A stretch of 64,000 nucleotides of DNA from Patescibacteria group bacterium (GCA_028704015.1 JAQVLT010000005.1:10820-74819); one strand, 5' to 3'; positions 8,649-60,509 are shown, counted from the stretch's first letter. The notes: generated by a model from the letters alone, not told the origin. Translations and numbers: made by a program.

Positions 8649-8668
8649 ATAAAAGCTAACGGCTGCAA

Positions 8669-8992: not shown

Positions 8993-9040
8993 AGGGTAAA
9001 AATTTAAAAAATAAATAATTTAAAAAACTATTTTGTCGTC

Positions 9041-10383: not shown

Positions 10384-10433
10384 CGGTTTTATTTAAAAAC
10401 CTTTCACCTTTCTACTTTTATCTTTTTTACTTG

Positions 10434-10988
10434 TTAAATTGTCATTATTTCTTCTTCTTTTTTCTTTCTTATTTCTTCTAATTCTTCGTTCACTTTTTTT
10501 ATTTCATCGTCAAGTTCTTTTAAAAATCTGAATTTATCATCTTCTCCGAATTCCTTCTCCTCCTCAGCCGCTTCAATAGCTACCTTCACTTCGTCTCTTA
10601 TTTGCCTCATTGCCACTCTGGCTTTCTCCATTTTTTCATTTAACTTTTTAACCAATTCTTTTCTGTTTTCCTCAGTCATCTGCGGGATAGTAATACGAAT
10701 TCTTATTCCTTCGTTAATAATACCCATCCCCAAATTAGCTTCGGTAATAGAACGTTCAATTTCTTTTAAATTATTTTTATCCCAAGGAGTGATAGTCATA
10801 CTTCTGGCATCGCTCACCGCGATATTTGCCACGCCATTCAAGGGAGTTTTGGAACCGTAAACATCCACCATTATTCCTTCAAACATAACTGGATTAGCAC
10901 GACCTGTGCGTAAAGTTGAAATTTCTTTTTTAAAAAAATCTATAGTTTTTTGAAATTCTCCTGATTTTGCTTGCAAATATTTATTCAT
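10434..10988 (-). CDS. frr: ribosome recycling factor
   Basis: 184 aa with the TGRANPVMFEGIMVDVYGSKTPL...ITPWDK...IRIRITIPQMTEENRKELVK pattern. Confidence 0.95.
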   Translation of the reverse strand: MNKYLQAKSGEFQKTIDFFKKEISTLRTGRANPVMFEGIMVDVYGSKTPLNGVANIAVSDARSMTITPWDKNNLKEIERSITEANLGMGIINEGIRIRITIPQMTEENRKELVKKLNEKMEKARVAMRQIRDEVKVAIEAAEEEKEFGEDDKFRFLKELDDEIKKVNEELEEIRKKKEEEIMTI

Positions 10989-36900: not shown

Positions 36901-38457
36901 TTATCGCGAACAGTTACCACCTTCAGCAATCCGCCACTGGTGGCAAGGATACGAATCAATTTGCATATTCCAAATTCCGCTAGGATTACCTAACGAATCA
37001 TAAAAATCCCAGTCAAAATAAGTTGATTGAATTTTCATTTCATTGGTTGTTTTACCTTCCACTCCATTGCAAACTCCGTCACCACTATAATTTGATTGTC
37101 CCGTTGATTCTTTATTCCAATAAGAATATGCACAGACTAAATGGTCATTTACACCGAACAAACCTCCGACGTAAGATGAACCAATTACCTCACCTCCAGC
37201 ATAACTATTTATAATTGATCCGTTATAAGCTTCACCAGCTAATCCACCAATTCTTGATACGCCGCTTACATAGCCAAAACTATAAGAATTTGAAATTGTC
37301 CCTTGTTTTAAATAGCCAAGCAAGCCGCCTATTCTATTCTGGCCACCTACCGATCCAGTCGAAAAAGAATTTGAAATCGTAGAGATAACGGCATATCCTA
37401 ATTGTCCAACCAATCCGCCAAGATAATCATTACCATTTACATTGCCGACAGCATAAGAGTTAATGATTGAACCATTCAAATCCCCGACTAAACCACCGAC
37501 CATATTTCCAGCGCTTGTTACAGCACATTCCGAATAACAACCAGATATAGCCAAAACATTTTGTTCTGTAGCTACTAAGCCGCCACCCAAAGCGACCAAA
37601 CCTCCTGCTTCGCCAAATGTGCTAGTTATTGTACCGGAGGTATGACAATTGGTTATTTGAGTACTCTCGGCTGTTCCTGCTAAACCGCCAACAAAACGAT
37701 AACCTGTAATATTTTCATTTATCAATCCAATATTTTTTATCTCCGCATTTTTAGTATAACCAAACAACCCAATATGAGTATAATTTGCAGGATATTCCGC
37801 GGGTGAAAAAGGTCTATTAATATACAAATTACTGATTGTATGTTCCCCTCCATCGAACACCCCTGAAAATTTATCACCAAAAACTGAATTACCAATAGGT
37901 TTAAATCCTTTACCATCATTCCAGCTCTGTGTTTCCGCGCAATCAACATCCTGAGTTAAAATATAATTTCCATCCAAGGGATAGTCGGTGGTGTCATCAC
38001 CAATCTTTTGCAACTCTTCGCAACTACTAATTGCCGTAATGACTGCAACCGACCCGGCATTTTCAAAACTAGCTTCTACGGCTCGAGTAGTTTTCCCATA
38101 AGTACCCACGGAACTAAAAGTGATATACTCATTAGTTAAATTATAATCAACTGAATAATTGGAACCATTAATTAAATTACCGGAGAACACATTGGCTTGC
38201 GAATAATTAGGAAGCGTATAACTATTTTTTTGCATTTCCCAAATAGATTTTTCTATACCTGTTTCCGCGGCAAAATAAGCCTTAACAGAATCTTTCTGTG
38301 TTTGGCTCATACGCAAACCCGATACCGCAATATTGGTCGCTCCCAAAGCGACCAAAAGAATAGCAGATAAAATCAAAAGAGTCATTAACAAGGCGGAACC
38401 TTGCTGATTGGGTTTGGGAAAGTTTTTATAAAATTTTATTTTTATTTTTTTAAACAC
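36901..38457 (-). CDS. PilX-like minor-pilin N-terminus fused to a GLUG-repeat adhesin-like domain
   Basis: The N-terminus QQGSALLMTLLILSAILLVALGATNIAV resembles the PilX_N segment. Residues ~229-445 carry about 8 GLUG-type repeats (VGGLAG, GGLVGDLNGSIINSYAVGNVNG, LGGLVGQ, IGGLLGY, IGGLAGE, VGGLFG). GTG start. Confidence 0.7.
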   Translation of the reverse strand: MFKKIKIKFYKNFPKPNQQGSALLMTLLILSAILLVALGATNIAVSGLRMSQTQKDSVKAYFAAETGIEKSIWEMQKNSYTLPNYSQANVFSGNLINGSNYSVDYNLTNEYITFSSVGTYGKTTRAVEASFENAGSVAVITAISSCEELQKIGDDTTDYPLDGNYILTQDVDCAETQSWNDGKGFKPIGNSVFGDKFSGVFDGGEHTISNLYINRPFSPAEYPANYTHIGLFGYTKNAEIKNIGLINENITGYRFVGGLAGTAESTQITNCHTSGTITSTFGEAGGLVALGGGLVATEQNVLAISGCYSECAVTSAGNMVGGLVGDLNGSIINSYAVGNVNGNDYLGGLVGQLGYAVISTISNSFSTGSVGGQNRIGGLLGYLKQGTISNSYSFGYVSGVSRIGGLAGEAYNGSIINSYAGGEVIGSSYVGGLFGVNDHLVCAYSYWNKESTGQSNYSGDGVCNGVEGKTTNEMKIQSTYFDWDFYDSLGNPSGIWNMQIDSYPCHQWRIAEGGNCSR

Positions 38458-38556
38458 AGTGGATTATAATTTTAAATATTAAACTCTAAACTTTAATTGA
38501 ATAAAAAATTTTAAATGATAAATTATTTATTATAATTTTGTTAATTAGTAATTTAA

Positions 38557-38613
38557 TCATTTGTTCATTTAAAATTGATTTAAAATTTATAATTTAATAT
38601 TTAAAATTTGTGA
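38557..38613. promoter_or_regulatory. conserved AT-rich intergenic element with phased ATTTAAAATT boxes, copy A
   Basis: About 57 nt, nearly identical to 44747..44804. Boxes start at 38567, 38578 and 38599 (11- and 21-bp spacing). The element abuts the stop codon of the upstream gene. Confidence 0.5.
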
Positions 38614-44616: not shown

Positions 44617-44649
44617 ATTTGGTTAATTTTAAATTATAAATTATAAATT

Positions 44650-44669
44650 CCTGCCTGCCGGCAGGCAGG
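44650..44669. repeat. GC palindrome family, copy 2 (CCTGCCTGCCGGCAGGCAGG, perfect)
   Basis: Perfect 20-nt palindrome in AT-rich intergenic DNA. Confidence 0.75.
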
Positions 44670-44746
44670 TTAATTGAATGACAAATTTCTTAATTTTAAA
44701 TTTTCTTTCAACTTCGCTGCTCTCTCTTCCGGATTATAATAATTTG

Positions 44747-44804
44747 TCATTTTATCATTTAAAATTGATTTAAAATTTAAAATTTGATATTTAAAATTTT
44801 GTGC
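44747..44804. promoter_or_regulatory. conserved AT-rich intergenic element with phased ATTTAAAATT boxes, copy B
   Basis: Aligns with 38557..38613 with about 5 mismatches. Boxes start at 44757, 44768 and 44789 (11- and 21-bp spacing). It abuts tandem TAA stops. Confidence 0.5.
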
Positions 44805-44807
44805 TTA

Positions 44808-45815: not shown

Positions 45816-46352
45816 TTATGGTAATTGAATAGCAAACCAGTCAAAACTTGAAGCATCACTGCCGCTGCTATTATTTGTTGATACGCTACAATTAACTGTA
45901 AACACAAGCTTGTTTTCTTTTGTAAAGCCGCAATAACTTGCATCCATTGTATTTCCATCCGAAGCAGCTTTATTATAGTCATGCTCCGATACAATAATAT
46001 GAGGCTCTTTACCATTTAAATCAAAACCATAATTAGCCAAATTAATTTGTTTTGTAATATTAAGAGTGCTGCCGCTCCACTCATCCTGCCCCGAGGCTAC
46101 TTTTATATTATTAAACATATTATCAACATAATCTTTACTGGCAAAGTCCACGGCTAAATTATTCCACTCGGTAGCGGTTAATTGTTGGCCGGCACTCTTG
46201 CTATAATTTGACGACAAGGCTAAAGCTGTATTATGTATATATAATGAATAAATTAAAGCCGCGCCGGCACCAGCGATTACGAGAAAAATAACCACTGCTA
46301 TTTTCAACTGAATTTCTAATTTTTTTATTTTTTTAAAATCTTGTCTGTTCAT
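45816..46352 (-). CDS. single-TM protein, member 1 of a tandem pair with conserved N-terminus and divergent C-terminus
   Basis: The first ~75 aa align with ORF 46375..46857 (KKL.IQL.IAV.IFL...ALSSNYSKS.GQQLTA.EWNNL..DFASKD). The C-terminal halves are unrelated by eye. Confidence 0.55.
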   Translation of the reverse strand: MNRQDFKKIKKLEIQLKIAVVIFLVIAGAGAALIYSLYIHNTALALSSNYSKSAGQQLTATEWNNLAVDFASKDYVDNMFNNIKVASGQDEWSGSTLNITKQINLANYGFDLNGKEPHIIVSEHDYNKAASDGNTMDASYCGFTKENKLVFTVNCSVSTNNSSGSDASSFDWFAIQLP

Positions 46353-46374
46353 ATGTTTTTATTTATTCATAATA

Positions 46375-46857
46375 TTACCAAGTAAAGCATGAAACGTAAC
46401 AATTTTGCTGGCCGGAATCATTTACTCCAATACTGGCCGACCATTGCCCATCATTATAACTTACCCGGCATAAACCAGCCGACGAATCATCATCCACCAT
46501 TGATAACGCGCAATATTTGTAATTTTTTATTTGGCTATTGACTGAAGCGACCTGGTTGCTATTGTTAAAAGGTAAATTAATAACTTGCAAGGTGCTGCTT
46601 TTTAAAACAAAATTATTACTTAAATTAGTTAAATCATCTTTAGAAGCAAAATCCGCAACTAAATTATTCCACTCATCAGCCGTCAGCTGTTGACCGTTGC
46701 TCTTGCTATAATTTGATGACAAGGCCAAAACGGCATTATGCGTATACAACGAATAAATTACAACTGCACCGACGCTTGCAACCGCTAAAAAAATTATTAC
46801 CGCGATTCTTAGTTGAATTTTTAATTTTTTCATTTCTTTTAAATAGGTTTGATTCAT
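46375..46857 (-). CDS. single-TM protein, member 2 of the tandem pair
   Basis: See 45816..46352. The C-terminus has 4 Cys and ends YVSCFTW. Confidence 0.55.
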   Translation of the reverse strand: MNQTYLKEMKKLKIQLRIAVIIFLAVASVGAVVIYSLYTHNAVLALSSNYSKSNGQQLTADEWNNLVADFASKDDLTNLSNNFVLKSSTLQVINLPFNNSNQVASVNSQIKNYKYCALSMVDDDSSAGLCRVSYNDGQWSASIGVNDSGQQNCYVSCFTW

Positions 46858-47291: not shown

Positions 47292-49376
47292 TTAATTGAC
47301 GCACACACAAATACCAGAGTTGCATGAAACATTCGGATAGTTTACGTCACAAACTACATTGCAACTTGACCATCCGTATGCGTCACCCAGCCAAGTACTT
47401 TTATATGCTCCGTTTGTTACAACGGTTGTATTACATATTTCTTCCGTATATCGCGTACACCCATTTTTAGTATAATTCAAATGATAACCGGCATCGCAGC
47501 TAATATCTCCTGGAAATGTGCAAGGAAAAATCAACGGGAACGTACAAACATTAATATAATTGGCACTCTGGCAGCCGGTATTGCAATAATAAATTTTTCC
47601 ATTATTACTTCCATCGTCGCAAACTTCTGAACCGTTTTTAATCCCATCACCGCAATAATCACCAATACCGCTACAATCGGCTTTGCATTTATTATAAGCT
47701 CCATTATCCGCGCCGTCGTCGCAAACCTCTAATCCGTTTTTTACACCGTCACCACAACTAACATCTTTTGGTTTTGATATTGTAATAATTTCGCTGCAAT
47801 CATTTTTGCAATAGGCACAAGCACTATCATAAGCAGGCAAACAAACCACTCCGTTGTTTACTCCGTTATCACAAATTTCCAAACCGTTTTTTATGCCATC
47901 ACCGCACCATTGCGTTTTTTCTACCGTACTTAATCCACTGCAATCATTTTTGCAATAGGTGCAAGTACTATCATAAACAGGCGAACAAACCACTCCGTTG
48001 CTTGCTCCGTTATCACAAATTTCCGCCACACCTAAACTATTTGGCTTTTGTATTTTGCCATCACCACAATAAGTATCAGCTAAAATATTTATACTGCAAA
48101 CTTTTTCCGTAAAACTATCAGAATGTTTTTCATCATGCACTATAACTTTATATTGATAGTTTTGTATCTTTCCCGCTATGGCCGCTGATAATTCTCTCTG
48201 ATTAGCAACGGTTGTTGGACTGATTTTCAAAAAACTATTTCCGGAATACCATTGCCAATTAGTCCAATCAGCGCTGGCGGAGGGATAAATCGGCTCAATT
48301 TTATCCCAAATTATTTTATTGTTTTCCGGATCTGACGCGCTAATATATCCTTTAAAAGGTTTTTCCGGATAACCTCTTAGGATTGGACAAATTATTTGCG
48401 GTAAACTATTTGATATAATTTCCTCATAAGAAACTGTTTCACTTCCCTCGCAAGCGCCTTGCGCTAAATCAGTAACATAACCTGACTCCATTACGGCGCA
48501 GACATTATATTTTAAACCGTTGTCTGAGCCGGAATATACCATTGTTTTACTACCGGCTGGCAGCACTAAATTGCCCCCGGAGACAGTCCCGGAAAATTCC
48601 TTTGCTTTTTCATCCCAACAGGTTATTTTATCAAACCGATTATTGCCGCAATTACCCAATTTGTTTACCGGATCAACCGGCAATGGCGACAAACCAATTT
48701 CACGAGAAAAATTCTCTTGCCAGCTTGGCCAAGTAGAAATTGTTTTATTGGGAAGATATGAACCGGCGGATAATTTTGGATAAAATCCTTTTTGTTTTTT
48801 GTAATTTTCCAAAGCAATTTTTATTTCTGCCAAATCGGATAGCCGCTTTGTGTCGCGTACTATTTTTGCCTTTGCGCCAGAACAAAATTGGCCTGCGTCA
48901 CAGTCGCTGTCTATCCGGCATCTTTTTGCGTCAGCGACTGGCGCGGCTGGCGGGGTAAAACATTTATCGGATGAATTTTCATTAATATTGGTATTGAATT
49001 TCCAATGCGAAAGAATTTGGCCAAAAATATCAAGCGTTCCGCTTTCGGCTTGTTGGTTATAAGAAATAAGATAAATGTTAGTATAAAAATTATTATCACT
49101 AATATTTGCCACATTAACATAAACCGTGCGACCATCGCGGATTGCTTCGTAACCGTCAACCAAAAGAGATTGAGGCGCACCGGTAAATTTCATTTCCTCT
49201 CTATACCAGCGCAGAGGCGAATAATGTTTTGAGTTGGGGATCACGCGAATAGCAATAGCATCGGGGGAAGTTTGCGCAGAGGAGGAAGAAGCAGAAAACA
49301 AAAAACAAAAAATCATTAAGAAAAATAAACATGTCCCTGCCAAAATTTTATAATTGAATTTTGATTTAATTTTCAT
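47292..49376 (-). CDS. secreted 694-aa protein with a headless pilin-like motif and four CGDGxxNGxExCDxG cysteine-rich repeats
   Basis: Signal peptide ending SSSAQT. VRDTKRLSDLAEIKIALENYKKQKGFYP (aa 173-200) resembles the pilin alpha1-C region. Four Cys repeats span aa 436-603 and resemble the Myxococcus-type cysteine-rich repeat. The tail is Cys-rich. Confidence 0.65.
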   Translation of the reverse strand: MKIKSKFNYKILAGTCLFFLMIFCFLFSASSSSAQTSPDAIAIRVIPNSKHYSPLRWYREEMKFTGAPQSLLVDGYEAIRDGRTVYVNVANISDNNFYTNIYLISYNQQAESGTLDIFGQILSHWKFNTNINENSSDKCFTPPAAPVADAKRCRIDSDCDAGQFCSGAKAKIVRDTKRLSDLAEIKIALENYKKQKGFYPKLSAGSYLPNKTISTWPSWQENFSREIGLSPLPVDPVNKLGNCGNNRFDKITCWDEKAKEFSGTVSGGNLVLPAGSKTMVYSGSDNGLKYNVCAVMESGYVTDLAQGACEGSETVSYEEIISNSLPQIICPILRGYPEKPFKGYISASDPENNKIIWDKIEPIYPSASADWTNWQWYSGNSFLKISPTTVANQRELSAAIAGKIQNYQYKVIVHDEKHSDSFTEKVCSINILADTYCGDGKIQKPNSLGVAEICDNGASNGVVCSPVYDSTCTYCKNDCSGLSTVEKTQWCGDGIKNGLEICDNGVNNGVVCLPAYDSACAYCKNDCSEIITISKPKDVSCGDGVKNGLEVCDDGADNGAYNKCKADCSGIGDYCGDGIKNGSEVCDDGSNNGKIYYCNTGCQSANYINVCTFPLIFPCTFPGDISCDAGYHLNYTKNGCTRYTEEICNTTVVTNGAYKSTWLGDAYGWSSCNVVCDVNYPNVSCNSGICVCVN

Positions 49377-49387: not shown

Positions 49388-52300
49388 TTAATCACTAATC
49401 GGTGTAGCCGCCGCAGTCGTCGTTGCGCTTGGATTGCCATATTGATCATAAGCCACTAAACCAAAACAATATTTATTATTATTTGCTAATCCCAAAATAG
49501 TAGTAGTTGCAATATTTCCGTTTGATTTTGACGCCACGACAGAAGTACCAAAATTTACTGTTGAGTTGCAATTTTGTTCTGCTTTGTAAAATATTCTAAA
49601 TCTGCTAGCATCACCATTACTGCTCATATCCTTCCAGACAATATCGGCTTTGCCATTTCCCGCTCGAGCATTAGTAACTATCGGTGAAGTCGGACCCTGG
49701 GTGTCCCAAGGAACAGCCAAGACTTCATTGGAATAAGCGCTTTCCGCTCCGCTAACATAAATAGCAGTTACAGCAAAATAATAAATTTTTCCATTATCTA
49801 AATTTTCAATGGTATAATTTGTGTTAGTTGTTGCTATAAAATCAAAATATTTTCTATTACTTAAACCATAATATACTTTGTAAGTTTTAAAGGTTTCGCC
49901 TGACGGAATATTGATCGCGCTCCAGTTCAAATTGACTTTATTTCCCTCACTAATATTTGAGTGAAGAGTCTCTGAATCAGCACCCGCAGACAAAACAATA
50001 TCGCTAACAACAGGCAAAGCGGAGCGAAAAAAATATGATTCTTTTAGCACTGTTTGGCAAAGCCCGCCGCCGCAATCAGCGTTTGACTTACAAGCTTTTC
50101 CAACATTAGCACCATAAACGCAGGTAGTAGTTCTTGCCCCCTGAATAACGGCCGCGTTACTCTGAATCGCCGGTAAATCGTCTGCTGTCCCTTCTCCGCC
50201 GGCATCACGACAATAATACAATTTATAATTTGTATCTTTACAATCGGTTGCTCCTGGCTGGCAATTACCTTCTTGGTCTTCCCATGGCGACCAGCTATGA
50301 ACAGAGGTAATAATTGGCGGCCAAGGATTCTCGCAGACAAAAACAAAGGCCTGTGTATCTCCTGTTTTTGTAGTCGTGGCGATGCCTGAGGTGCTAGCTG
50401 TCGCATGGATCCAGCTGAAATCATCAACAATATCATTTTGAGCTTGAATCAATTGTTTATTGCTGTTAGCAGCAAAAACGGATGTTGTGGCCAGGACGTC
50501 TGTTTTGTCAATTTTCCAAGTCCAAGTCCAATCATATGCGCCCAACACCGGATTTAAAACTTGATCATCGCTACTAAGCGCATAAGCAGTAAAAACTTTG
50601 TCATTATCAGCCGCTATATCAAATTTTGTCAGATTATCAGGGTCGTCAATTTCTTTAACATCACTCTCTGTGGTGTTAAATAAGTAATCATCCGGTTCAA
50701 TTACTATTTTATCAACTAAGCAGATACCATTATTGTCTTCTCCCTGATTAGCCAAAGTTTTAAACGACCAAATTTCCGCATTAGCAAAACTTAAACCATT
50801 AAACAAACTTACCGATGTATTATTAACACCCTTAAAGCCGACACCTTCTTTGCTTAATATTCCTTTTTTGTTACCCAAGATTTCTTCACCTTTTATAATC
50901 GCATAGTAGGTAACGCTTGGATCTAACAATTTCTTAGGACTAAATGTTAATGTTGTGTAAGTGGCTGAATTTTGTCCGCCGGTTGTCCCTTCTATAGCGC
51001 AGAAATTGCTCGTAGCTTGGGCAAAAGCGTCATCACCAAAAAGAGGAGTCAAAACCGGTTTTAATATTACGTTTATACTTCGCGCGATTCTTTTGTAAAT
51101 TTTAGAAACAAATCCGATCTTTGGCTGACCGCTACCATCAAGCGACAAATAAGTTGTATTGATCGGGCATTGCTTATCTTCATAATCACCAACAACTATA
51201 ATATTACCTTTAAAACTTGTAATATCCATCAAACTGTTAAATTGAGCTTGAATTTGGGTATTGCGACAAATATTATTTCCTATTGGAGTTTTGCTATTTA
51301 TAGCTGGCCGCGGATGACAACAAGTATCCCCTCCACATCCAATGGCATCAACGCCGCCGCAATCGCTGTCCTGACTGCAACCGCAACAAAGACCGCGATT
51401 AGCTCCGCTACACGAACCACGATTTGCATGGCAAGTTAGCTTTGGATTCTTTTTAGCACACTGATCAACGGCGGCATTTGGATCACAGCAACAAACACCA
51501 CAACTTGGATAAACCGATCCGGACCCATCCTGATTCAAGCAGGAAAAACCATTGCAAATATTTGTATCACACACTGGTTCGGAAACCGTAGATTCCGTGG
51601 AGCACTCTTTACCGAATTCCGGTCCCGGTTTGCATTGATCAGTGCACTGCGCCTGCGTATAAAAAACCGCGTTGGTGCTACTGGCAATTTTATTATTATC
51701 ACAAGAATCGCCGCTAGCACTACACTTATAATAAGCGCAATAAGCCAAACCAGACGGATTGTTGGAAACAATATTTTTATCTCCGGTTCCGCCGCGGCAA
51801 ACATTATTTTTCATCGCATCAACACAACAAGTACCATGGCTAGAACATTCTTCTAAATTTGTTACTTTTGTGCAATCGCTACAAACGCCCTTACCGCCTG
51901 CCGCCGTCACATCGCAAAATTTTCCGAAATGACCGGAACAATTGCACGCAGCATCTGGATCGGGCGCAGAAGCGCAACCGGTACAAACGCCAAAATCAGT
52001 GCCGGCCGCATCGCTACCGCAACCGCCTTCGCATTTTAACGGCGAACAGCAATCTTGGTCACCATTAGCCTTGCGACAACAGCAATCACAACTAGCCTGA
52101 TCGGCTACTTTGCACTTGTTATCACTCTCACACTTAGCATTTCCAGAACAAATATTTTGTTCAATTCCGCAAATACCAACGCCACTATTATTCAAACATT
52201 TATAACCATCGGCGCATAAATTGCATAATCCGTCGCTCCCCATATTAACGCATTTATTTCCAGAAATTTTTGTCCATCCAGTAGGACAACTATCAACGCT

Positions 52301-55300
52301 ATTAAAATGCCAGCGATTTTCATTATTATACACAGAACAATATTTTTCTACGCTTTCGCCCGATGAATTAATTGCGGTTCCATTTAGCGAGCAACTATTT
52401 TCAGCTTTCTTAACGCATTTATTCAAATTACTATTATATTCGCAACTACCGCTTGCACACGCGCCTATACCATTGCAGGAATAATTGCAATCACCTACTT
52501 CTTTTTTTGTTCCGGCTGCCGGCTGATAAGGCGAACATTGTCCCGGAGAATTTGGACAGAGATTATTGGATAAACATTGATTCAAATTATAACCCGAGCA
52601 AGAAGGCGGACAGCTGGAAGTAGCATCACCTAAATAATTGATGCAACCCGCATTACAACAATTGCCGTCGCCGCATTTATTTTTTCCCGCTGGGCAACCG
52701 ATGCATTGGCTTTCTGAAGCATTTTGACATGTACCTTTTACGCAACAAACATTACCGCAAGCTTCTTGGTCAGTCGCGCATTCGGTTTTTGGCTGGCAGG
52801 TACAATTTTTAGATGGATCACAAAATAAATTTTGGCTTCCAGCACATTTAGTATTATCAGGTTCGCACGTAGTTGTTTCTGAATTTCCATCGCACGGATC
52901 TCCTGGTTGCGACCCGGTTTTTCCTGTACTAAATTCAAACTCATAAACAGCCGCAAGCGCACCCTGGCGGCAATTAGCTAAGGTGGCTTTACATAAACCT
53001 TCAAAGGTACTGCCGGCAGGACAACAAACTTGGCTATTAGTGCAAGATCCGCCTTGGTCCAAACAGGACGCAGGAATTCCGCTTGTCCTGCATTTTTCTT
53101 CACACTCATTAATATCTTTAAAATATGGGTTACCTGGCGTTGTTGAAGCAACTAAAATATTTTTATTGCAACTATTTGTATCACATAAATAATAACCACA
53201 ATACGCGCTAGTGGTAGTCCTACTTCCCACGCTACATTTATTTTTGTCCATCGCATCAATACAACATTCACTAGACTGAGAACATTCCGCTTCGTTGGTT
53301 ATAGAAGAACAATTAACCGATGTGGTTGTCGCTTCGTGCGCTATAAATTCAAATTCATAAACTGCCGCCGTGGGACGTTGGTTGCATTTGACAAGCGAGT
53401 CGCGGCATTCGCCGGCGTAAACGGTGTCGGCGGCGCAACAAATATTTCCTGTACCACAAACAGCGTTTTTTTCCTCTTCCGTATTACCAGCCGCCAAACA
53501 ACCAATCGCTCCGGTTGGCATCGTGGTGGTTGCTATTTCTGTGCCTATCGTTGTTGTACCGTTTGAAGATTCATCGTCTTTGACGAAATTCAAATAATTA
53601 CTTATTAAATTATTTGCACTTTTTACAAAAGTTGAAGTTAAACCAACGGATAAATTTGGCACTTTGGCTTGGCCATTTAACGCGCTAAAACCAAGACTTA
53701 CGGCCAAAATATTATTGGCGCTATCGCCAAAATAAGGATTAACATTGGATAAACTAACGCCATTATAAGTAACTACGTCGTTCACTTTTCCATGATTAGG
53801 ATTAAGTTGGCAGATTCCCGGACGGGTAATATTATTAACTACAAAATTTGGTAAATTCGGGCCATAATTATCATTGGTTGAATCTTCGTAATTATTAATG
53901 GCATTTTTTATTTTAATCGGACTATTGGCCGCAACTCCATCTGGCACAACCGCGATGATTTGACGGTCGCTCCAATTATCAACGCAAGCTGAATTAGTAG
54001 TGTTTGCTAAACTTGCTTCCACCAGAGTCCCGTCATTTTTGGTAAACCAAACTTGCCCGATAGTAGACCCAAAATTACGACCGCCAATAGTGACTAAATT
54101 TCCCGTCGCTCCATTAGGCGTGTTAATATTACATTCGCTCGCAGTGCAATCTGAGTCAAGCTGGCAAATTTTATTTGTATCATTTTCACAAAATCCGCCG
54201 ATCGGAGTAACCCAGCTGATCATTGGTTTGGTCTGACAAATGCATCCTTCGGTTTTGCAAGCGCAAAAGGCAGTTGAACATAAATTGTCATTGCAATTTG
54301 TTTTGTCGCTATCGCTGCACTGCGGTTCCAAATCCGCCTGATTGCAAGGACCGCCTTCGCAGGCTAAACAATCACCGCCGCAATCAATGCCAATTTCACC
54401 GGAATCTTTTATGCCATTACAACAATGCCCCGGCTTTATTGCAGCCGTAAATTCACTTTGGCCAAAAGCCAAAGTTGCGTCATAGGCTTTTATTTTAAAT
54501 GTATAATTTTCTCCGATATTCATGTTCGCGGTGTTTGTCTGATAACCACCGGAAAAATCTTTCTGCCCGCCGGCTTGAAATATTTGTTTTTCCTCTTCGT
54601 TTTCTCCTGACTTTTTTTCATAAAATTTTACAAAAGAAAGCCCGAGATCGTCATTTGCCCAACCTGATATTAAATTGGCATCAGCTTTGAGCGTGCCATC
54701 ATCTTTGCAAATCTGGCTTGGCGCTATTCCGGCTGTCGGAGCGCTGGTATCAATAGCATCGTTAGTGGCAAAAATAAATGTACAGCTGGCGGTTTGGCAA
54801 GTTAAACTATTTCCATTAATAGATTTGATGCCGCTCAAAGCATTCACTGTCACCTGAAAACCGCTCCATTCCGGCAAGCAATTTGTCGCCCCGCTGGCGC
54901 CACAGTCAGCACTGGCTCTAAAAATTATTTGTCTCGTGGAAGAACTTATTAAACCGATAATATTTTCTGGCGCGCTTAAACTCGTAGTAGCAACATGATC
55001 ATCGTTGTAAGTATAAATTTTTTCTACTTTAATATTATTATTCAAATCATCTTGCGCAAGTTTTGTTAAATCTTTATTGAAAGTTAAAACAATAGCGGAA
55101 TTTCTCGGATTATTAATACTTCTGTCAGACGGATTATTGCTATAAATAAATTCGCCAAATGAGGCGCATCCCAGGCCGACACAACCGCCTGGAACACAAG
55201 AAGTTTTGCATGTCCCCGAACAGCAATAAAAATTTCCCGTACAATCAGAATCTACCGCGCAAGTCTGACCTTCTTCCACTCCGGTCGCCTGCATAATTCG

Positions 55301-55645
55301 GCTGATAACAAAACTGGCAATTGCAAAAGACATAAGAATTATTATCAAACCGATTAGAGCAGCTTTTAATGTTTTTTTGGCTTTCTCAATTTGCTCTGCA
55401 TTTCCGGCGGCCGTCATATACATCCAGCCGGCATAAATTATTATCCCGACAGCAATGATTCCCAAAAATCCCAAAGCAACTCTAATAACATTAGCAACTA
55501 TCAAACGCGGATCAGTAGAACCAAGTCCGATTTGCTCGCCAAAAGATAATCCGAGATCGGTTTGCGCAAAAACAAAACTAGCCACTCCTAAACAGCTAAA
55601 AAGTGTAAAAGATAATATTAATATTATTTTTATTTTTTTAGACAT
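49388..55645 (-). CDS. giant (2085 aa) surface protein: VirB2/TrbC-pilin-like two-helix N-module, Ig/IPT-like domains, hyper-cysteine core, two C-terminal FN3 domains
   Basis: A single uninterrupted ORF. The N-terminal 120 aa are paralogous to those of ORF 56163..58883. About 149 Cys by hand count. FN3-like segments: NLNWSAI...YYFAVTAIY and ADIVWKD...YCFGLVAYD. Confidence 0.8.
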   Translation of the reverse strand: MSKKIKIILILSFTLFSCLGVASFVFAQTDLGLSFGEQIGLGSTDPRLIVANVIRVALGFLGIIAVGIIIYAGWMYMTAAGNAEQIEKAKKTLKAALIGLIIILMSFAIASFVISRIMQATGVEEGQTCAVDSDCTGNFYCCSGTCKTSCVPGGCVGLGCASFGEFIYSNNPSDRSINNPRNSAIVLTFNKDLTKLAQDDLNNNIKVEKIYTYNDDHVATTSLSAPENIIGLISSSTRQIIFRASADCGASGATNCLPEWSGFQVTVNALSGIKSINGNSLTCQTASCTFIFATNDAIDTSAPTAGIAPSQICKDDGTLKADANLISGWANDDLGLSFVKFYEKKSGENEEEKQIFQAGGQKDFSGGYQTNTANMNIGENYTFKIKAYDATLAFGQSEFTAAIKPGHCCNGIKDSGEIGIDCGGDCLACEGGPCNQADLEPQCSDSDKTNCNDNLCSTAFCACKTEGCICQTKPMISWVTPIGGFCENDTNKICQLDSDCTASECNINTPNGATGNLVTIGGRNFGSTIGQVWFTKNDGTLVEASLANTTNSACVDNWSDRQIIAVVPDGVAANSPIKIKNAINNYEDSTNDNYGPNLPNFVVNNITRPGICQLNPNHGKVNDVVTYNGVSLSNVNPYFGDSANNILAVSLGFSALNGQAKVPNLSVGLTSTFVKSANNLISNYLNFVKDDESSNGTTTIGTEIATTTMPTGAIGCLAAGNTEEEKNAVCGTGNICCAADTVYAGECRDSLVKCNQRPTAAVYEFEFIAHEATTTSVNCSSITNEAECSQSSECCIDAMDKNKCSVGSRTTTSAYCGYYLCDTNSCNKNILVASTTPGNPYFKDINECEEKCRTSGIPASCLDQGGSCTNSQVCCPAGSTFEGLCKATLANCRQGALAAVYEFEFSTGKTGSQPGDPCDGNSETTTCEPDNTKCAGSQNLFCDPSKNCTCQPKTECATDQEACGNVCCVKGTCQNASESQCIGCPAGKNKCGDGNCCNAGCINYLGDATSSCPPSCSGYNLNQCLSNNLCPNSPGQCSPYQPAAGTKKEVGDCNYSCNGIGACASGSCEYNSNLNKCVKKAENSCSLNGTAINSSGESVEKYCSVYNNENRWHFNSVDSCPTGWTKISGNKCVNMGSDGLCNLCADGYKCLNNSGVGICGIEQNICSGNAKCESDNKCKVADQASCDCCCRKANGDQDCCSPLKCEGGCGSDAAGTDFGVCTGCASAPDPDAACNCSGHFGKFCDVTAAGGKGVCSDCTKVTNLEECSSHGTCCVDAMKNNVCRGGTGDKNIVSNNPSGLAYCAYYKCSASGDSCDNNKIASSTNAVFYTQAQCTDQCKPGPEFGKECSTESTVSEPVCDTNICNGFSCLNQDGSGSVYPSCGVCCCDPNAAVDQCAKKNPKLTCHANRGSCSGANRGLCCGCSQDSDCGGVDAIGCGGDTCCHPRPAINSKTPIGNNICRNTQIQAQFNSLMDITSFKGNIIVVGDYEDKQCPINTTYLSLDGSGQPKIGFVSKIYKRIARSINVILKPVLTPLFGDDAFAQATSNFCAIEGTTGGQNSATYTTLTFSPKKLLDPSVTYYAIIKGEEILGNKKGILSKEGVGFKGVNNTSVSLFNGLSFANAEIWSFKTLANQGEDNNGICLVDKIVIEPDDYLFNTTESDVKEIDDPDNLTKFDIAADNDKVFTAYALSSDDQVLNPVLGAYDWTWTWKIDKTDVLATTSVFAANSNKQLIQAQNDIVDDFSWIHATASTSGIATTTKTGDTQAFVFVCENPWPPIITSVHSWSPWEDQEGNCQPGATDCKDTNYKLYYCRDAGGEGTADDLPAIQSNAAVIQGARTTTCVYGANVGKACKSNADCGGGLCQTVLKESYFFRSALPVVSDIVLSAGADSETLHSNISEGNKVNLNWSAINIPSGETFKTYKVYYGLSNRKYFDFIATTNTNYTIENLDNGKIYYFAVTAIYVSGAESAYSNEVLAVPWDTQGPTSPIVTNARAGNGKADIVWKDMSSNGDASRFRIFYKAEQNCNSTVNFGTSVVASKSNGNIATTTILGLANNNKYCFGLVAYDQYGNPSATTTAAATPISD

Positions 55646-55663
55646 TTTAATATTTTAAATTCT

Positions 55664-55699
55664 AAGCACTAAACTCTAAATTCTAAATAAATTCAAAAT
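55664..55699. repeat. left inverted repeat flanking the four-helix-bundle gene
   Basis: AAGCACTAAACTCTAAATTCTAAATAAATTCAAAAT. The reverse complement of 56096..56158 contains the same blocks. Confidence 0.6.
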
Positions 55700-55724
55700 T
55701 CAAAAAGATAAATTCAAAACTTTA

Positions 55725-56084
55725 TTATTTGCACTTTTCTAAAATGGCACCGAATATCTTTGTCAATTCTGATGCTTCCTTGATTAAAGCGTCGCGTTCT
55801 AATAATAATTCTGAAGGACAATCAACTAATAGAAACCAATACTTAGATTCTTTCGCTTCCTTGCGGCAAATTTTAATCCTCATAGTAAAATCTTTTTTAC
55901 TCAATGACTCATTCGCTTCTATATAATTAGCGCCGACTGAACCAGATGAACGGCTTAATTGTTTTATATCTTCTATATTAGAAATCGTTCTCGGTAATTT
56001 CTTAATAAACTCTCTTGTAACTTTAGCAAATTTTAGCGTTCTTTCTTCTAAATCATAATAATTAGTCGTCGCTGTTTTGATCAT
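55725..56084 (-). CDS. four-helix-bundle protein (23S rRNA intervening-sequence protein family)
   Basis: SSGSVGANYIEANESLSKKDFTMRIKICRKEAKESKYWFLL is the family hallmark. 119 aa. Confidence 0.85.
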   Translation of the reverse strand: MIKTATTNYYDLEERTLKFAKVTREFIKKLPRTISNIEDIKQLSRSSGSVGANYIEANESLSKKDFTMRIKICRKEAKESKYWFLLVDCPSELLLERDALIKEASELTKIFGAILEKCK

Positions 56085-56095
56085 TGAAATTTTAT

Positions 56096-56158
56096 ATTTT
56101 GAATTTATTTAGCCTGTCTGCCGGCAGGCAGGGATTTAGAGTTTGTAATTTAGTGCTT
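56096..56158. repeat. right inverted repeat flanking the four-helix-bundle gene (interrupted by a GC palindrome)
   Basis: The reverse complement reads AAGCACTAAA-ttacaaa-CTCTAAAT-[ccctgcctgccggcagacagg]-CTAAATAAATTCAAAAT. Confidence 0.6.
56113..56132. repeat. GC palindrome family, copy 3 (CCTGTCTGCCGGCAGGCAGG)
   Basis: 20-nt palindrome with one G-T position, nested in the right inverted repeat, 3' of the 906-aa gene. Confidence 0.75.
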
Positions 56159-56162
56159 CAAA

Positions 56163-58883
56163 CTACGGGCATGTACTTGATGCCGTAGCTGTGCCGCTGC
56201 AGCAAGAAGGTGTGACCGTATTAATACCTGCTGGGCAAGCAGGACCGCTAGCTGGCATAAAACAATTCTGATAAATATCCTGAACACCAGAACCGGCTTG
56301 ACCGCGATATTTCTGCATATCACTAAACATAGAATGTTTTATATAAACCTCGGTCAAATCAGGATAGCCATCTTGGGGCAAGGTGTCTGATTCTAAATCC
56401 TCCTTTGTTATCCAGTATCCCAGCGGGTCGGAGCTAAAAGAAATCAAATTAACATTTTTGTTTTCTACATAAACTGACTGAGTAGGAGTGCTTTGTGTCT
56501 CATCCTTTTCCTGCGTTGAACCGGTTTTTAAAGTGCTTGCTCGCAATAATTTATTAAATTTAATTATCAAATAATTTGAAAGGTTAGCTCCGCTGCTCGC
56601 ATTGGCCGGCGTAGTTGCGGTGATAGCCGGACCGTTAGTATCTTTACTAGATCCTACAAAGAATGACCACTGAAAATTGTCACCCGCAGTAGATGCGCTA
56701 ATCGGCTCAGTAAGCTCGTAAAAGCTAACTGGACCTTCGGCATTGCCATTTCTATTACCGTCCAAAGAATTCAAAGCCATATCAACCACGCCGTCTATAT
56801 TTGTTGTATTTGCTACGGGATAATTTAAAGCCGGATTGCTGTTGTCTTTACAAACTCCGCTAACACAATTGCTGTATGGACTTTTAGTCGCACAATCATT
56901 ACTGCCAACCGCGCAAGTCTGCAAACTCGCAGCTTTTAATTCAACACGCAAATTTGCCCTGGCTGGCAAACAATAAATTTTCTGTCCGCAAGCATTTACG
57001 CCGCATTCCTTGTCTGATTTAAATTCCACTGTTTTATATCCATTGGGAGAAACATAAAATTCACCTTCTAAATAATCATTATCACCCGTGCAGACGCCAC
57101 TAACACACTTGAATGATTTGCATTCCGCGTCAGCTGCACAGGTTGCTGTTTTGGCTTTGGCATCACTCGCGGCATTAACAATTTTTATATAATTTGCGAC
57201 CGCGCTAGCTTGCCCGGAAATCAAATTTGGCATTATCGGTTCATTAAAATTAATCTGAATCGTAGCATTCATCGGTTCATCCGGTCTGCCGTTAACTTCA
57301 AATTTAACTGCTTTATCTTTTCCCCCGCTCATATTAGTAATAGTTAAAATATTTGCATTGCTTAACGAAGTTACGGAAATATTATTTCCACTTACCCCAG
57401 CAACTTTAGCTGCAAGCGTGACTACTCCTTGATTAGATGTAGCTGTTATTCCTAAATTGCTGTCATTTATTGCCTTGGCAATATTAGCTGCGGTAGCAGC
57501 CTCATTAGAGCTCGCTACAATTTTGCCGGCGCCGGCATTACTGCTAAATGTAAAAATTGTATTTCCAATTTTTAGCGTATCCGCCTCCTTGGGTGAAGTT
57601 AAAGTTATTTTCCATTCATCTCCTTGTTTAAATGTGCCATCAGATGGTTTTAATATCAAACCACAGCTAATATCAGCAATGTTGTCGGTTGTGCTGTCTC
57701 CGCTTACAAAACCGGAAACATTAGTAACTGAAGCTGTATTGTTATTTATGCTGACATTAACATCCCCATCATAAGTGCATGAATAATTACCTTCCAATTT
57801 AGCATCTTCCGTTTCACTGCCAGAATCCGCCTTTACCGGTTGAGTATAAGATGCGGACACGGCTACCTGCGGCAAACCATTTACCACTATTGAACCAACA
57901 GCCGCGACAGCAGACTCTTCTGAAATTACGGTGTCCTGTTCTCCGTCTGGCACAGGAAAAACGTCCTTCACCTGCGGTGGAGTCAAATCCAAAAGCGTAC
58001 CAACTTCAAACTGCCATTCAAAATAAGCGGTATTGCGGCAATTAGCAAAAACACTTTTTTTGTTATTAGTCTGGATGCCATCTGTTAATCTGACAATATA
58101 CCAAATTTTCTCCGAAGCCGAACCAAGATATTCGGTCGGCCTAAAGACAAAGGTTTTATTATCGCTACTGCTGACTACTACGTCAACTAAATTACAGCCA
58201 GACTGCACATTTCCCACGCCAGTCATCAAACAATTTGTTCTTAGCACCTGCTTAAATATTTTTATATCTGATGTTGGCCCGCTATTGGGGGCGCAAAGTC
58301 CTGTTTCAGGAACTACTTCGCTGCAAATTGTTGTTGGATCAATTGCTTCCTTAAAAGTCACTACAATTGGATAATTTCTTGCCACATCCAATTGTCCGTC
58401 CTCGGGGTAGACGCTATCAATGCTACAATTTCCCAGGGCGCCAAAACCCGGACGAAATCCTGGCGTACCTCCCGGTACGTTCGTGCCTGTTCCCCCGAGA
58501 CTTCCGGCTAACCGACCAATAATGAAACTGACGATTGCAAAAGCTGACAATATAATTATTAAGCCAATCGCGGCGTTTTTTAAAATAGCAATCGCTTTTT
58601 TTACTTTCTCCTCATTACCTTCACTCGTCATGTACATCCAGCCGCCGTAAATAATAAGCACTACCGCCAAAATTCCCAGAAATCCAAGGGCGACTCTAAC
58701 CACTTTTGCCGCAATCAAACGCGGATCTTCTTGGCTTAAACCGGTCCCAGCGCCGTATTGAATACCGGTCAAATCATCGGTTTGCGCAAGAGCAAAATTA
58801 CTGAGTAATAAAAAAATAGCTCCCCAAGCGAAAATCGCTATCAAAGCTATTTTTATTTTTTTTGAGTTCTTTTGTATAAACAT
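56163..58883 (-). CDS. large (906 aa) surface protein with VirB2/TrbC-pilin-like two-helix N-module and Ig-like/Cys-containing extracellular domains
   Basis: N-terminus ...LAQTDD...DPRLIAAKVVRVALGFLGILAVVLIIYGGWMYMTSEGNEEKVKKAIAILKNAAIGLIIILSAFAIVSFIIGRL. SbsA/Big-like segments follow (P-x-D-G...V...I.V.F), then the tail CPAGINTVTPSCCSGTATASSTCP. Confidence 0.75.
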   Translation of the reverse strand: MFIQKNSKKIKIALIAIFAWGAIFLLLSNFALAQTDDLTGIQYGAGTGLSQEDPRLIAAKVVRVALGFLGILAVVLIIYGGWMYMTSEGNEEKVKKAIAILKNAAIGLIIILSAFAIVSFIIGRLAGSLGGTGTNVPGGTPGFRPGFGALGNCSIDSVYPEDGQLDVARNYPIVVTFKEAIDPTTICSEVVPETGLCAPNSGPTSDIKIFKQVLRTNCLMTGVGNVQSGCNLVDVVVSSSDNKTFVFRPTEYLGSASEKIWYIVRLTDGIQTNNKKSVFANCRNTAYFEWQFEVGTLLDLTPPQVKDVFPVPDGEQDTVISEESAVAAVGSIVVNGLPQVAVSASYTQPVKADSGSETEDAKLEGNYSCTYDGDVNVSINNNTASVTNVSGFVSGDSTTDNIADISCGLILKPSDGTFKQGDEWKITLTSPKEADTLKIGNTIFTFSSNAGAGKIVASSNEAATAANIAKAINDSNLGITATSNQGVVTLAAKVAGVSGNNISVTSLSNANILTITNMSGGKDKAVKFEVNGRPDEPMNATIQINFNEPIMPNLISGQASAVANYIKIVNAASDAKAKTATCAADAECKSFKCVSGVCTGDNDYLEGEFYVSPNGYKTVEFKSDKECGVNACGQKIYCLPARANLRVELKAASLQTCAVGSNDCATKSPYSNCVSGVCKDNSNPALNYPVANTTNIDGVVDMALNSLDGNRNGNAEGPVSFYELTEPISASTAGDNFQWSFFVGSSKDTNGPAITATTPANASSGANLSNYLIIKFNKLLRASTLKTGSTQEKDETQSTPTQSVYVENKNVNLISFSSDPLGYWITKEDLESDTLPQDGYPDLTEVYIKHSMFSDMQKYRGQAGSGVQDIYQNCFMPASGPACPAGINTVTPSCCSGTATASSTCP

Positions 58884-58944
58884 AATTTTATTAATAAAAA
58901 TATATAAATTTAAAAAAGTAAAAAACCTAAAAAATTTAAAAAAT

Positions 58945-58974
58945 TCTTAAATCTTAAATCTTAAATCTTAAATC
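58945..58974. repeat. heptamer tandem repeat (TCTTAAA) x4 plus a partial unit
   Basis: Read directly. It lies in the divergent region between the 906-aa gene (start 58883) and rel (start ~59037). Confidence 0.75.
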
Positions 58975-59036
58975 ATCTAGGTTTGACTAATCCACAATTA
59001 AATTATAATATAATTATAACACAAACAAAAGATCTA

Positions 59037-60509
59037 ATGCAAATAAAAATGACAATAGAACAAGTTATTAAAAAAGTAAAAGAAAATGACCATGGAGCAG
59101 ACACTGATTTAATTCGGCTTGCTTATGATTTTGCATTAAAAGCTCATAGTGGACAAAAAAGAAAGAACGGTGAAGAATATATTCAACATTCTCTTCACAC
59201 TGCCTTCATTTTGACTCAAATAAGAGCTGACGTGCCTTCAATAATTGCCGGTCTTCTTCATGATGTTCCCGAAGATACGGAATTTACACTCAAAGATGTG
59301 GAAAAAAACTTTGGCAAAGAAGTAGCTATGTTGGTAGAAGGTATAACAAAATTAAGCAAGATCAAATATCGCGGCATTGAAAGATACCGTGAAAGTTTAA
59401 AAAAAATGTTTCTTGCCATGGCGCACGATTTAAGGGTAATTTTAATAAAATTCTGCGATCGCCTGCATAATTTAAGGACTTTAGACGCTTTATCGCCGGA
59501 AAAACAGCAAAGAATCGCCCAGGAAACCATGGAAATTTTTTCTCCCATTGCCGGACTCTTGGGTATCTGGCGCCTAAAATGGCAGATGGATGATCTTTGT
59601 TTCAAATATTTATTGCCGGAAGAATTTAAAAAATTGGAGTACAAATACGAAGTGGAAAAAAAATTAGAACGCACGCAATTTATTAATAAAGTCAGGGACG
59701 TCCTGGGAAAAAAATTCAAAGAAGAAGGCATTGAAAATGAAATTGAAGGAAGATTTAAACATTTATTCAGCATTTACCAAAAAATGCAGAAAAAAGGCCA
59801 ACAGTTTGACGATATTTATGATGTATTTGCACTACGCATTATTACTACTTCCGTAGCTAATTGCTATAAAATATTAGGATTAATTCATACTATCTGGCGG
59901 CCCAAACCAAACCGCGTAAAAGATTATATTGCCGTGCCAAAACCAAACGGCTACCGCAGTCTTCATACCACCGTTTTTTGCCTTGATAACAAACTGGTTG
60001 AATTTCAAATTCGCACCAAAGAAATGAACGAAGAAGCGCACTACGGTATCGCCGCTCATTGGTATTACAAACAAAAAGAAGGCGAAAATATTGTTAAACA
60101 GCCGGCTTGGATTAAAGAAATTTTAGACATGCAACGCGCCACCGAAAATGCTCATGATTTTATAAAAAAAATTAAATTTGATGTTTTTCAAGATAGAATT
60201 TTTGTTTTTTCTCCCAAGGGTGATGTTTTTGAATTGCCTCGCGAATCCACGCCGGTTGATTTTGCCTATGCTGTCCATACTGATATCGGCAACAAAGCCG
60301 CCGGAGCGATAGTCAATGAACAAATTACTACTCTGGATCATATTCTAAAAAATGGCGACGTAGTCAATATAATCATTGAAAAGAACCGCAAAACGCCAAA
60401 CAAAGATTGGCTCAGGTTTGTAAAAACCGCCCGTGCTCGCGATAAAATAAAACAAAACAGCGCCAAATCGACTTTTGACAGTTTAAAAAAATTCTTTCCC
60501 GGGAAATAA
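59037..60509 (+). CDS. rel: RelA/SpoT-family (p)ppGpp synthetase/hydrolase lacking the C-terminal regulatory domains
   Basis: HD hydrolase motif (GLLHDVPEDT), synthetase core (VFALRIIT, NGYRSLHTTV) and a TGS domain (RIFVFSPKGDVFELP...DFAYAVHTDIG). The ORF ends about 60 aa after TGS. Start chosen at the first ATG (59037); the ORF track starts at TTG 58983. Confidence 0.85.
   Translation: MQIKMTIEQVIKKVKENDHGADTDLIRLAYDFALKAHSGQKRKNGEEYIQHSLHTAFILTQIRADVPSIIAGLLHDVPEDTEFTLKDVEKNFGKEVAMLVEGITKLSKIKYRGIERYRESLKKMFLAMAHDLRVILIKFCDRLHNLRTLDALSPEKQQRIAQETMEIFSPIAGLLGIWRLKWQMDDLCFKYLLPEEFKKLEYKYEVEKKLERTQFINKVRDVLGKKFKEEGIENEIEGRFKHLFSIYQKMQKKGQQFDDIYDVFALRIITTSVANCYKILGLIHTIWRPKPNRVKDYIAVPKPNGYRSLHTTVFCLDNKLVEFQIRTKEMNEEAHYGIAAHWYYKQKEGENIVKQPAWIKEILDMQRATENAHDFIKKIKFDVFQDRIFVFSPKGDVFELPRESTPVDFAYAVHTDIGNKAAGAIVNEQITTLDHILKNGDVVNIIIEKNRKTPNKDWLRFVKTARARDKIKQNSAKSTFDSLKKFFPGK

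Follow-up and report, generated by a model that had tools for sequence, protein, structure and literature searches.

How a gene of the family known from ribosomal RNA intervening sequences (IVSs) comes to lie between protein-coding genes is the question raised by a locus in a 64,000-nucleotide (nt) stretch of DNA from a Patescibacteria group bacterium, referred to below as the window. Three genes follow one another here on the minus strand, coding for 906 amino acids (aa; 56163-58883), 119 aa (55725-56084) and 2085 aa (49388-55645), and the middle open reading frame (ORF) encodes a four-helix-bundle protein. A first-pass annotation had described this gene as flanked by inverted repeats of about 36 bp between two giant paralogs, and had offered two readings, a mobile cassette or an IVS-like site of RNA processing. 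The unit is a cassette made of a four-helix-bundle (S23p/Avd-like) gene between inverted arrays of 7-nt repeats, placed co-directionally and tightly between operon genes and not in an rRNA helix. The explanation favored here, with a probability of roughly 0.6, is that 55657-56165 forms one IVS-type selfish cassette of about 0.5 kb within an operon, with arms that form a stem in the RNA, where RNase III probably cuts.

At the sequence level, the inverted flanks read exactly as the first pass had written them. The left flank (55664-55699) is AAGCACTAAACTCTAAATTCTAAATAAATTCAAAAT, and its reverse complement occupies 56096-56158, split by 7 nt and by a GC-rich palindrome into the blocks ATTTTGAATTTATTTAG (56096-56112), CCTGTCTGCCGGCAGGCAGG (the palindrome, 56113-56132, followed by G at 56133), ATTTAGAG (56134-56141), TTTGTAA (56142-56148) and TTTAGTGCTT (56149-56158). 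The 17-mer CTAAATAAATTCAAAAT occurs exactly twice in the 64 kb, once per arm, and a repeat search returned two arm pairs, of 23 nt at 91% and 25 nt at 84% complementarity. The 36-bp core is thus present, but the arms are longer than that, with pairing that joins about 56165 to 56074 on the 5' side to 55721-55657 on the 3' side. Moreover, they are tandem heptamers, (AAAYYCK)n, and not arbitrary sequence. In the sense direction, the 5' arm (56085-56165, minus strand) reads AAGCACT AAATTAC AAACTCT AAATCC-palindrome-CT AAATAAA TTCAAAAT, then ATAAAATTTCA and ATG, the 20-nt palindrome being inserted within one of the heptads. The 3' arm (55657-55721, minus strand) is the complement of a heptamer array; its sense strand is AGTTTTGAATTTATCTTTTTGAATTTTGAATTTATTTAGAATTTAGAGTTTAGTGCTTAGAATTT, and its reverse complement reads AAGCACT AAACTCT AAATTCT AAATAAA TTCAAAAT. 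The supposed 7-nt insertion is real as sequence, but it is one additional unit of the array, AAATTAC in the sense register (56142-56148, minus strand), which has no partner in the 3' arm; one arm holds 4 heptads and the other 5. The pairing continues into the gene through an inner helix in which nt 5-11 of the ORF (TCAAAAC, 56074-56080, minus strand) face GTTTTGA directly after the double stop codon. The inverted repeat includes codons 2-4 of the 119-aa ORF, and because the inner helix lies inside the start of the ORF, the ATG falls in an internal loop between two helices. Two Logan contigs carrying an identical gene (L001 and L002, from SRR22315503 and SRR22315502) both stop 48 nt past the stop codon, within the 3' heptad arm; apparently the arm breaks assemblies as a repeat, or else the population is heterogeneous at this site.

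Whether such arms are peculiar to this locus can be judged from 80 genomic loci taken from one-genome-per-species contigs, plus the two closest relatives, L003 (87% protein identity) and L004 (82%). Flanks were scored by local alignment of the 200 nt upstream of a gene against the reverse complement of the 200 nt downstream, with a threshold of at least 30. This score was reached by 62 of 77 four-helix-bundle homologues (80%; 60-87% identical), whereas 4.7% of the 337 other genes in these loci reached it (Mann-Whitney p=7e-29 for the difference in score between family and control genes). The hosts of the scored homologues belong to the candidate phyla radiation (CPR), Planctomycetota, Desulfobacterota, Gammaproteobacteria, Verrucomicrobiota, Chloroflexota and other phyla. 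It had been allowed in the first pass that other family members might lack inverted flanks, which these counts contradict, and the flanks are more than a 36-bp repeat peculiar to this locus: heptamer arrays are kept across the whole family. Identity at a lag of 7 nt is 0.49 and 0.51 in the two flanks, compared with 0.31 upstream of control genes (p=9e-27). The consensus 5' array, common to Pirellulales, Desulfobacterales and Saccharibacteria, is AAA[T/C][C/T]C[G/T] repeated about four times, followed by AAACAAATTCAA and ATG with no Shine-Dalgarno sequence, and its conserved core consists of four variable heptads plus AAACAAA, that is, 35 nt abutting the ATG. Among the heptad arrays found in 525 kb of scanned sequence, 81 of 116 lie within 120 nt of a four-helix-bundle gene. 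More distant members (35-55% identity) use other heptads, such as AAATTAC/AAATACC, AAAAGGC and TGAATTA. Plasmid pAfl69 of Dolichospermum flos-aquae (L086; NZ_CP051207.1 29091-29489) carries a 36%-identical four-helix-bundle gene with three TTCGTAA and six TTTGGAA upstream and four TTACGAA downstream; its neighbors are a helicase-related gene on one side and, on the other, a hypothetical protein gene and then a DNA methyltransferase gene.

The same comparison bears on the idea that the flanks resemble each other through a generic AT-rich intergenic motif or by chance in low-complexity sequence. The genome is AT-rich (GC content of the window about 0.37), stretches with a 7-nt period occur in roughly 8 of 28 intergenic regions of at least 40 nt, and arms from different cassettes match one another well, all of which can be counted in favor of such a motif. 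However, shuffled and direct-repeat controls score about 17 compared with 36-40 for real flanks, only two other genes of the window reach a score of 30, several of the periodic stretches in the window are recognizable relatives of the cassette (the elements B1 and B2 and a heptad hairpin, described below), and the same arrays stand beside homologues in hosts whose GC content reaches 0.68. This explanation is refuted by comparison with control genes and across phyla, and is accordingly given almost no weight.

The heptamer-armed cassette is found in ordinary operons of at least ten phyla, with the family gene co-oriented with its upstream neighbor in 68 of 75 cases and with its downstream neighbor in 64 of 72 (binomial p about 1e-13 and 6e-12), at median gaps of 61 and 83 nt, just sufficient for the arms. 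With inverted flanks across so many phyla, the unit looks like a selfish cassette of wide distribution and not a peculiarity of this locus. Cassettes concealed in rRNA genes were considered and rejected, as neither of two conserved 23S rRNA motifs tested was present in any of the 84 related loci. A search for carriage by phages gave no match among 50,697 phage records. Copies on Nostoc flagelliforme plasmids were likewise rejected as independent insertions, since they are located in a duplicated plasmid backbone. A Saccharibacteria contig (L009, 1166-2795) has two identical tandem 234-aa IS200-like (Y1_Tnp) genes immediately upstream of its cassette. Each of these genes is bracketed by CCTTGCGAAGTCGGACTTCGCAAGG-type hairpins, unlike heptads, and a link between the cassette and Y1 transposases was rejected on account of these unrelated hairpins.

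The identity of the enclosed gene (55725-56084, minus strand) as a member of the rRNA-IVS four-helix-bundle family, proposed from the first, is borne out by profile and structural matches. The 119-aa protein matches PF05635 (E=9e-11; 42.4 bits, cut-off 33.8) and TIGR02436 (E=2.7e-16; 59.8 bits, cut-off 24), both above the curated cut-offs. An AlphaFold (AF2) monomer model, with a pLDDT of 91.7, places helices at residues 12-29, 34-58, 63-86 and 91-118. Residues 1-9, whose codons belong to the inverted repeat, are predicted to be disordered, and no Shine-Dalgarno sequence precedes the ORF. The best Foldseek matches are 2RLD (TM-score 0.76-0.83), also retrieved by phmmer (E=9e-9), and 2GSC; these two "S23 ribosomal protein family" entries are homologues that crystallize as five chains (A-E). 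The accessory proteins (Avd) of diversity-generating retroelements (DGRs), 4DWL and 8UB7, come next. More than 8000 relatives of the 119-aa protein were detected, many of them 60-75% identical though from different phyla. CPR genomes are rich in DGRs, the neighbors of the gene encode large surface proteins and the fold resembles bAvd (TM-score 0.6-0.7), so that the gene could be imagined as the Avd of a DGR aimed at the giant surface proteins. However, identity to Avd is only 10-12%, compared with 27-28% to 2RLD. In the 64 kb, no ORF of at least 250 aa contains a reverse-transcriptase motif, and no pair of template and variable repeats was found. Three YxDD matches look like sugar-epimerase motifs, by our own reading of the sequence context rather than by a domain search. 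With neither motif nor repeat pair in 64 kb, the DGR explanation was rejected and is regarded as most improbable.

At the level of the transcript, the flanks are predicted to pair as had been suggested. The long-range stem is present in both the minimum free energy and the centroid structures of the 531-nt sense transcript (55640-56170), and the arm duplex of the window cassette comprises 52 bp at -41.4 kcal/mol, compared with -15.7 for shuffled partners. Across the family, the mean duplex energy is -49.4 compared with -30.5 for shuffled partners. The first 30 nt of the ORF are complementary to the 40 nt after the stop codon, also family-wide (p=3e-13), so the repeat reaches codons 1-10. The arms are 71% identical between cassettes compared with 45% at third codon positions, and have a GC content of 0.39 in hosts of GC 0.61. 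Because the arms are far better conserved than third codon positions and stay AT-rich, their sequence itself is under selective constraint.

Whether the unit moves can be approached through its dispersed copies. The cassettes of the window, L003 and L004, whose 5' arms are homologous, align from outer arm end to outer arm end; the sequence outside is unrelated and the neighboring genes differ. Two derivatives that lack the ORF are found on the minus strand of the window. B1 (44625-44806) opens 1 nt after a stop codon with a heptamer array starting AAGCAC, and holds a 26-codon remnant, the GC palindrome (44650-44669) and a complementary array. The remnant (MTNYYNPEERAAKL...) resembles the N-terminus of the four-helix-bundle protein at its start, and is the best non-self tblastn match, though a weak one (E=0.87). 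B2 (38450-38611) lacks the palindrome, and its 5' array shares 92% identity with the B1 array over 53 nt. In L003, the whole cassette lies within a 615-nt stretch that has one half of a B element on either side, at 91% and 94% identity to B1; this is a nested arrangement, and the genes next to the B elements are unrelated between the two genomes. An empty site was sought in related genomes: in L085, a distant orthologous locus (43% identity to the C-terminus of the 906-aa protein), the next T4SS_pilin paralog follows about 100 nt downstream with no four-helix-bundle gene between. Altogether, the mobile cassette of the first-pass annotation is strengthened, though not proven, by a discrete unit in unrelated contexts and a distant locus free of it; the unit would then have spread by transposition.

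Heptad arrays are also found apart from any four-helix-bundle gene. The L085 spacer (4979-5080) starts AAGTTGT AAGTTAT AAGTTGT AAGTTAA, followed by a CCCACA...TGTGGG hairpin, and this array may be a solo arm or a footprint. An M50/PDZ protease gene of the window (9073-10383, minus strand) has another heptad dialect on both sides (10348-10433 and 8993-9072). Upstream of it, AAAAGAT AAAAGTA GAAAGGT GAAAGGT is followed about 25 nt on by its own complement, forming a hairpin without an ORF, and downstream of it CTTTTAG is repeated four times. To judge from the sequence, these flanks look like an element of this kind in empty or solo form. Four perfect GATTTAA repeats lie within 58884-59036, where the 906-aa gene and a relA/spoT-like gene (58983-60509) diverge, with no four-helix-bundle gene adjoining.

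The GC palindrome adds a second layer to this picture. It stands complete, over 20 nt, at three intergenic sites of the window (8630-8649, 44650-44669 and 56113-56132), and its core CTGCCGGCAG, with at most one mismatch, occurs 7 times compared with 0.67 expected. It was seen only in the genome of the window and in the closely related L003 genome. Homologous sequences with and without it can be compared twice: it lies at the same place in the 5' arms of the window and L003 cassettes where L004 has a clean 20-nt gap, and it is present in B1 and in the L003 B element and absent from B2 at the matching position. From these two precise contrasts, the palindrome behaves like an independently inserting mini-element, and what had been called repeat-in-repeat layering is indeed a layered insertion. 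In the form CCTG(C/T)CTGCCGGCAGGCAG(G/A), the palindrome recurs in AT-rich intergenic DNA, including L003 copies at 9953-9972 and 10546-10565.

Several results weigh against a mobile, RNA-processed cassette. The folding energy of the whole 531-nt transcript differs only modestly from that of shuffles (z=-1.74). The complementarity of a 5' arm to its own 3' arm (35.7) is close to that to the 3' arms of other cassettes (28.4), and the own partner is the best match for only 7 of 78 5' arms; with cross-cassette matching nearly equal, complementarity may be a by-product of two conserved arrays. Mismatches of the G-U type on the sense strand (70) are not in excess of those of the A-C type (81), with 200 transversions, and duplex energies of sense and antisense strands do not differ (p=0.22), so that these data do not demonstrate selection for RNA pairing as such. 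The 64-kb window contains no RNase III gene. On the side of mobility, the empty site belongs to a distant relative and not to a sister strain, a metagenome scan for a nearer one having given this one distant ortholog only. No direct repeat that would mark a target-site duplication is evident at the aligned boundaries, where ragged arm ends prevent base-exact junctions. No transposase is found in the cassettes, whose only ORF is the 119-aa bundle, and the neighboring genes encode housekeeping and surface proteins. The IVS-like processing site proposed in the first pass survives and is strengthened, though it is not proven: predicted long-range pairing and the Coxiella precedent described below speak for it, and its RNase III step would be expected from that precedent. 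The arms show no RNA-specific signature.

Much of this evidence can also be placed on the level of DNA, where the arrays would be terminal inverted repeats of a non-autonomous transposable element moved in trans and the RNA stem would be incidental. The arm sequence is conserved and not merely its pairing, and neither a G-U bias nor a strand asymmetry is seen. Derivatives without an ORF, resembling miniature inverted-repeat transposable elements (MITEs), are scattered in two genomes, with a cassette nested in one of them. The two precise presence/absence events of the 20-nt palindrome and a cassette GC content below that of the host agree with this as well, as do four-helix-bundle genes of Arthrospira that are unique to strains and have their best matches in other phyla (PMC8700078). 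However, no transposase or recombinase is found in or beside the cassettes, the sole Y1_Tnp neighbor (in L009) having its own unrelated hairpins, and the lack of an evident target-site duplication counts here too. The arm ends are ragged and not sharply defined, with a variable number of heptads, and co-orientation of about 90% with both neighbors would be unexpected unless strong selection acted afterwards. An element working at the level of DNA is considered unlikely, though one of the main rivals.

A further explanation concerns the protein, which in pentameric form would bind the arrays (five heptads, five subunits) and regulate its own translation or transcription, the solo arrays being further targets. 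The 35-nt core abuts an ATG without a Shine-Dalgarno sequence, crystals of homologues contain five chains, Avd is part of an RNA-protein complex (8UB7), and gene-less heptad arrays are found at 8993-9072, 10348-10433 and 58884-59036. The heptad number, on the other hand, varies: 4 and 5 in the window arms, 2-3 full and one degenerate in Coxiella and 9 upstream on the Dolichospermum plasmid. In RNA, moreover, the 3' arm is the complement and would not carry the same motif. In 128 cases, compared with 13 discordant, the two arms agree on G or T at the seventh heptad position, as would be expected if one protein variant reads both arms, but simple base pairing predicts the same concordance, which leaves the choice between RNA stem and sequence recognition undecided. 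Autoregulation through the arrays is judged rather improbable, a little more so than terminal inverted repeats. Both are viable, and neither excludes the IVS-type cassette that is favored here.

Returning to the locus itself, the flanking genes code for large surface proteins, each with an N-terminal T4SS_pilin-like segment and Big_5 domains. Their description as two giant paralogs holds in part: the 906-aa and 2085-aa proteins are alike over the N-terminal 190 aa or so (44% identity), but not beyond. The 5' arm begins 4 nt past the TAG stop codon of the 906-aa gene, and 11 nt separate the end of the 3' arm from the ATG of the 2085-aa gene (18 nt for the core arm, to 55664). Gaps this short cannot accommodate a separate promoter, and read-through transcription is therefore the most economical assumption. 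A hairpin (CTACGGCAT...ATGCCCGTAG) occupies the last 30 nt or so of the 906-aa gene (56163-56195), directly before the cassette, and its 3' strand holds the TAG stop. Inside the 3' arm, two sigma-70-like hexamer pairs are found at 55652-55687 on the minus strand (TTTAGA-17-TAGAAT and TTTAGA-17-TAAAAT), with 9 of 12 matches each; from these weak consensus matches, the cassette might provide an outward promoter toward the 2085-aa gene. A scan for intrinsic terminators found none, the GC palindrome being without a U tract, and an Rfam search of the cassette gave no known RNA family at E<=1. Elsewhere in the window, two tandem paralogous small genes (45816-46352 and 46375-46857) share a 261-nt repeat at 71% identity (45816-46857), and a 694-aa gene (47292-49376) contains an internal 109-nt repeat at 85% (47772-48024).

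Among known systems, the rRNA IVSs of Leptospira, Coxiella burnetii and Brucella are like the window cassette in size (about 0.45-0.5 kb), in holding an ORF of the same family and in their enclosing terminal inverted repeats. The IVS of C. burnetii 23S rRNA measures 428-444 nt and has a 28-bp terminal stem and an S23p ORF (PMC4990558). Its 3-4 tandem heptamers (2-3 full plus a degenerate one) stand directly upstream of the S23p ATG, strains differing by one, and the Shine-Dalgarno sequence is poor or absent; in the window cassette, too, copy-variable tandem heptamers immediately precede the ATG. RNase III was shown experimentally to cut at the start of the first repeat, and the IVS protein is probably not produced in vivo (PMC4990558). 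IVSs have been viewed as transposon remnants or as mobile elements with a mobility ORF (Burgin 1990; Ralph and McClelland 1993, as cited in PMC4990558). Their origin and the function of the S23p ORF have been open since about 1990, with hypotheses only on offer (PMC4990558), and a 2024 survey of CPR rRNA insertions called the domain functionally uncharacterized. The window cassette differs from the rRNA IVSs, which lie in helix 9, 25 or 45 of 23S rRNA, by its position between protein-coding genes, and its heptads are AAAYYCK where those of Coxiella are GACAGAT. Excision by RNase III, demonstrated for the Coxiella IVS, is what we infer for the window cassette.

Other systems share single traits with the cassette. 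Correia elements (NEMIS) of Neisseria and other MITEs are small intergenic repeats of operons, bounded by terminal inverted repeats, whose transcript hairpins are cut by RNase III and alter the stability of neighboring mRNAs. The ORF-less B1 and B2 are closest in likeness to these; unlike the window cassette, Correia elements have no ORF, are confined to one genus, make TA target duplications and have arms that are not heptamer arrays. In the early mRNA of phage T7 and in bacterial operons, RNase III cuts intercistronic stems to give separate messages, but these are short local hairpins that enclose no gene and are not mobile. Avd (4DWL, 8UB7) has the four-helix-bundle fold of the cassette protein, is pentameric and works in a complex with nucleic acid; it differs in its 10-12% identity and in the accompanying reverse transcriptase and template/variable repeats, both missing from the window. 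Finally, the short tandemly repeated repetitive sequences (STRRs) of cyanobacteria are tandem intergenic 7-nt repeats whose function is unexplained. They resemble the TTCGTAA/TTTGGAA arrays and their complement on the Dolichospermum plasmid, and differ in sequence from the heptads of the window. In the literature searched by full text, no link of STRRs to the four-helix-bundle family was found, nor any description of heptad-flanked four-helix-bundle cassettes outside rRNA. What is new here is an rRNA-IVS architecture in a protein-coding operon, with a heptad code conserved across the family.

For the favored IVS-type cassette, we infer a sequence of events in which read-through, cleavage, mobility and contact of the protein with the heptads are linked. 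The cassette would be transcribed by read-through from the 906-aa gene, and once the 3' arm has been made, the arms would pair into a duplex of about 50 bp enclosing the ORF and its start codon. By the precedent of the Coxiella rRNA IVS, RNase III would then cleave this duplex. The cut would part the message upstream from the one downstream and would restrict translation of the cassette gene to a short co-transcriptional window, nearly silencing it, and both effects together would make the insertion tolerable to the host. Conservation of the heptads across phyla implies a further partner that recognizes their sequence, in the simplest case the pentameric cassette protein or else a mobilizing enzyme, and this partner would let the unit and its ORF-less derivatives spread.

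A broader proposal, possible rather than probable and put forward tentatively, is that the cassette is the free-living form of a selfish, hitherto unrecognized class of elements spanning phyla, of which the ORF-containing rRNA IVSs would be copies that landed in rRNA helices. The pentamer would recognize the arrays of its own unit, about five heptads each, in RNA or DNA form, and so control or propagate it, the Avd of DGRs would be a domesticated relative, and STRRs could be footprints. For genome annotation, the cassette explains "four helix bundle protein" genes that interrupt operons, and it suggests why short-read contigs can break beside such genes, as the two Logan contigs do within the 3' arm. 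Hundreds of natural variants of the cassette are available for study, and its heptamer-armed form in operons of at least ten phyla makes the rRNA IVS one particular instance of a more general element.

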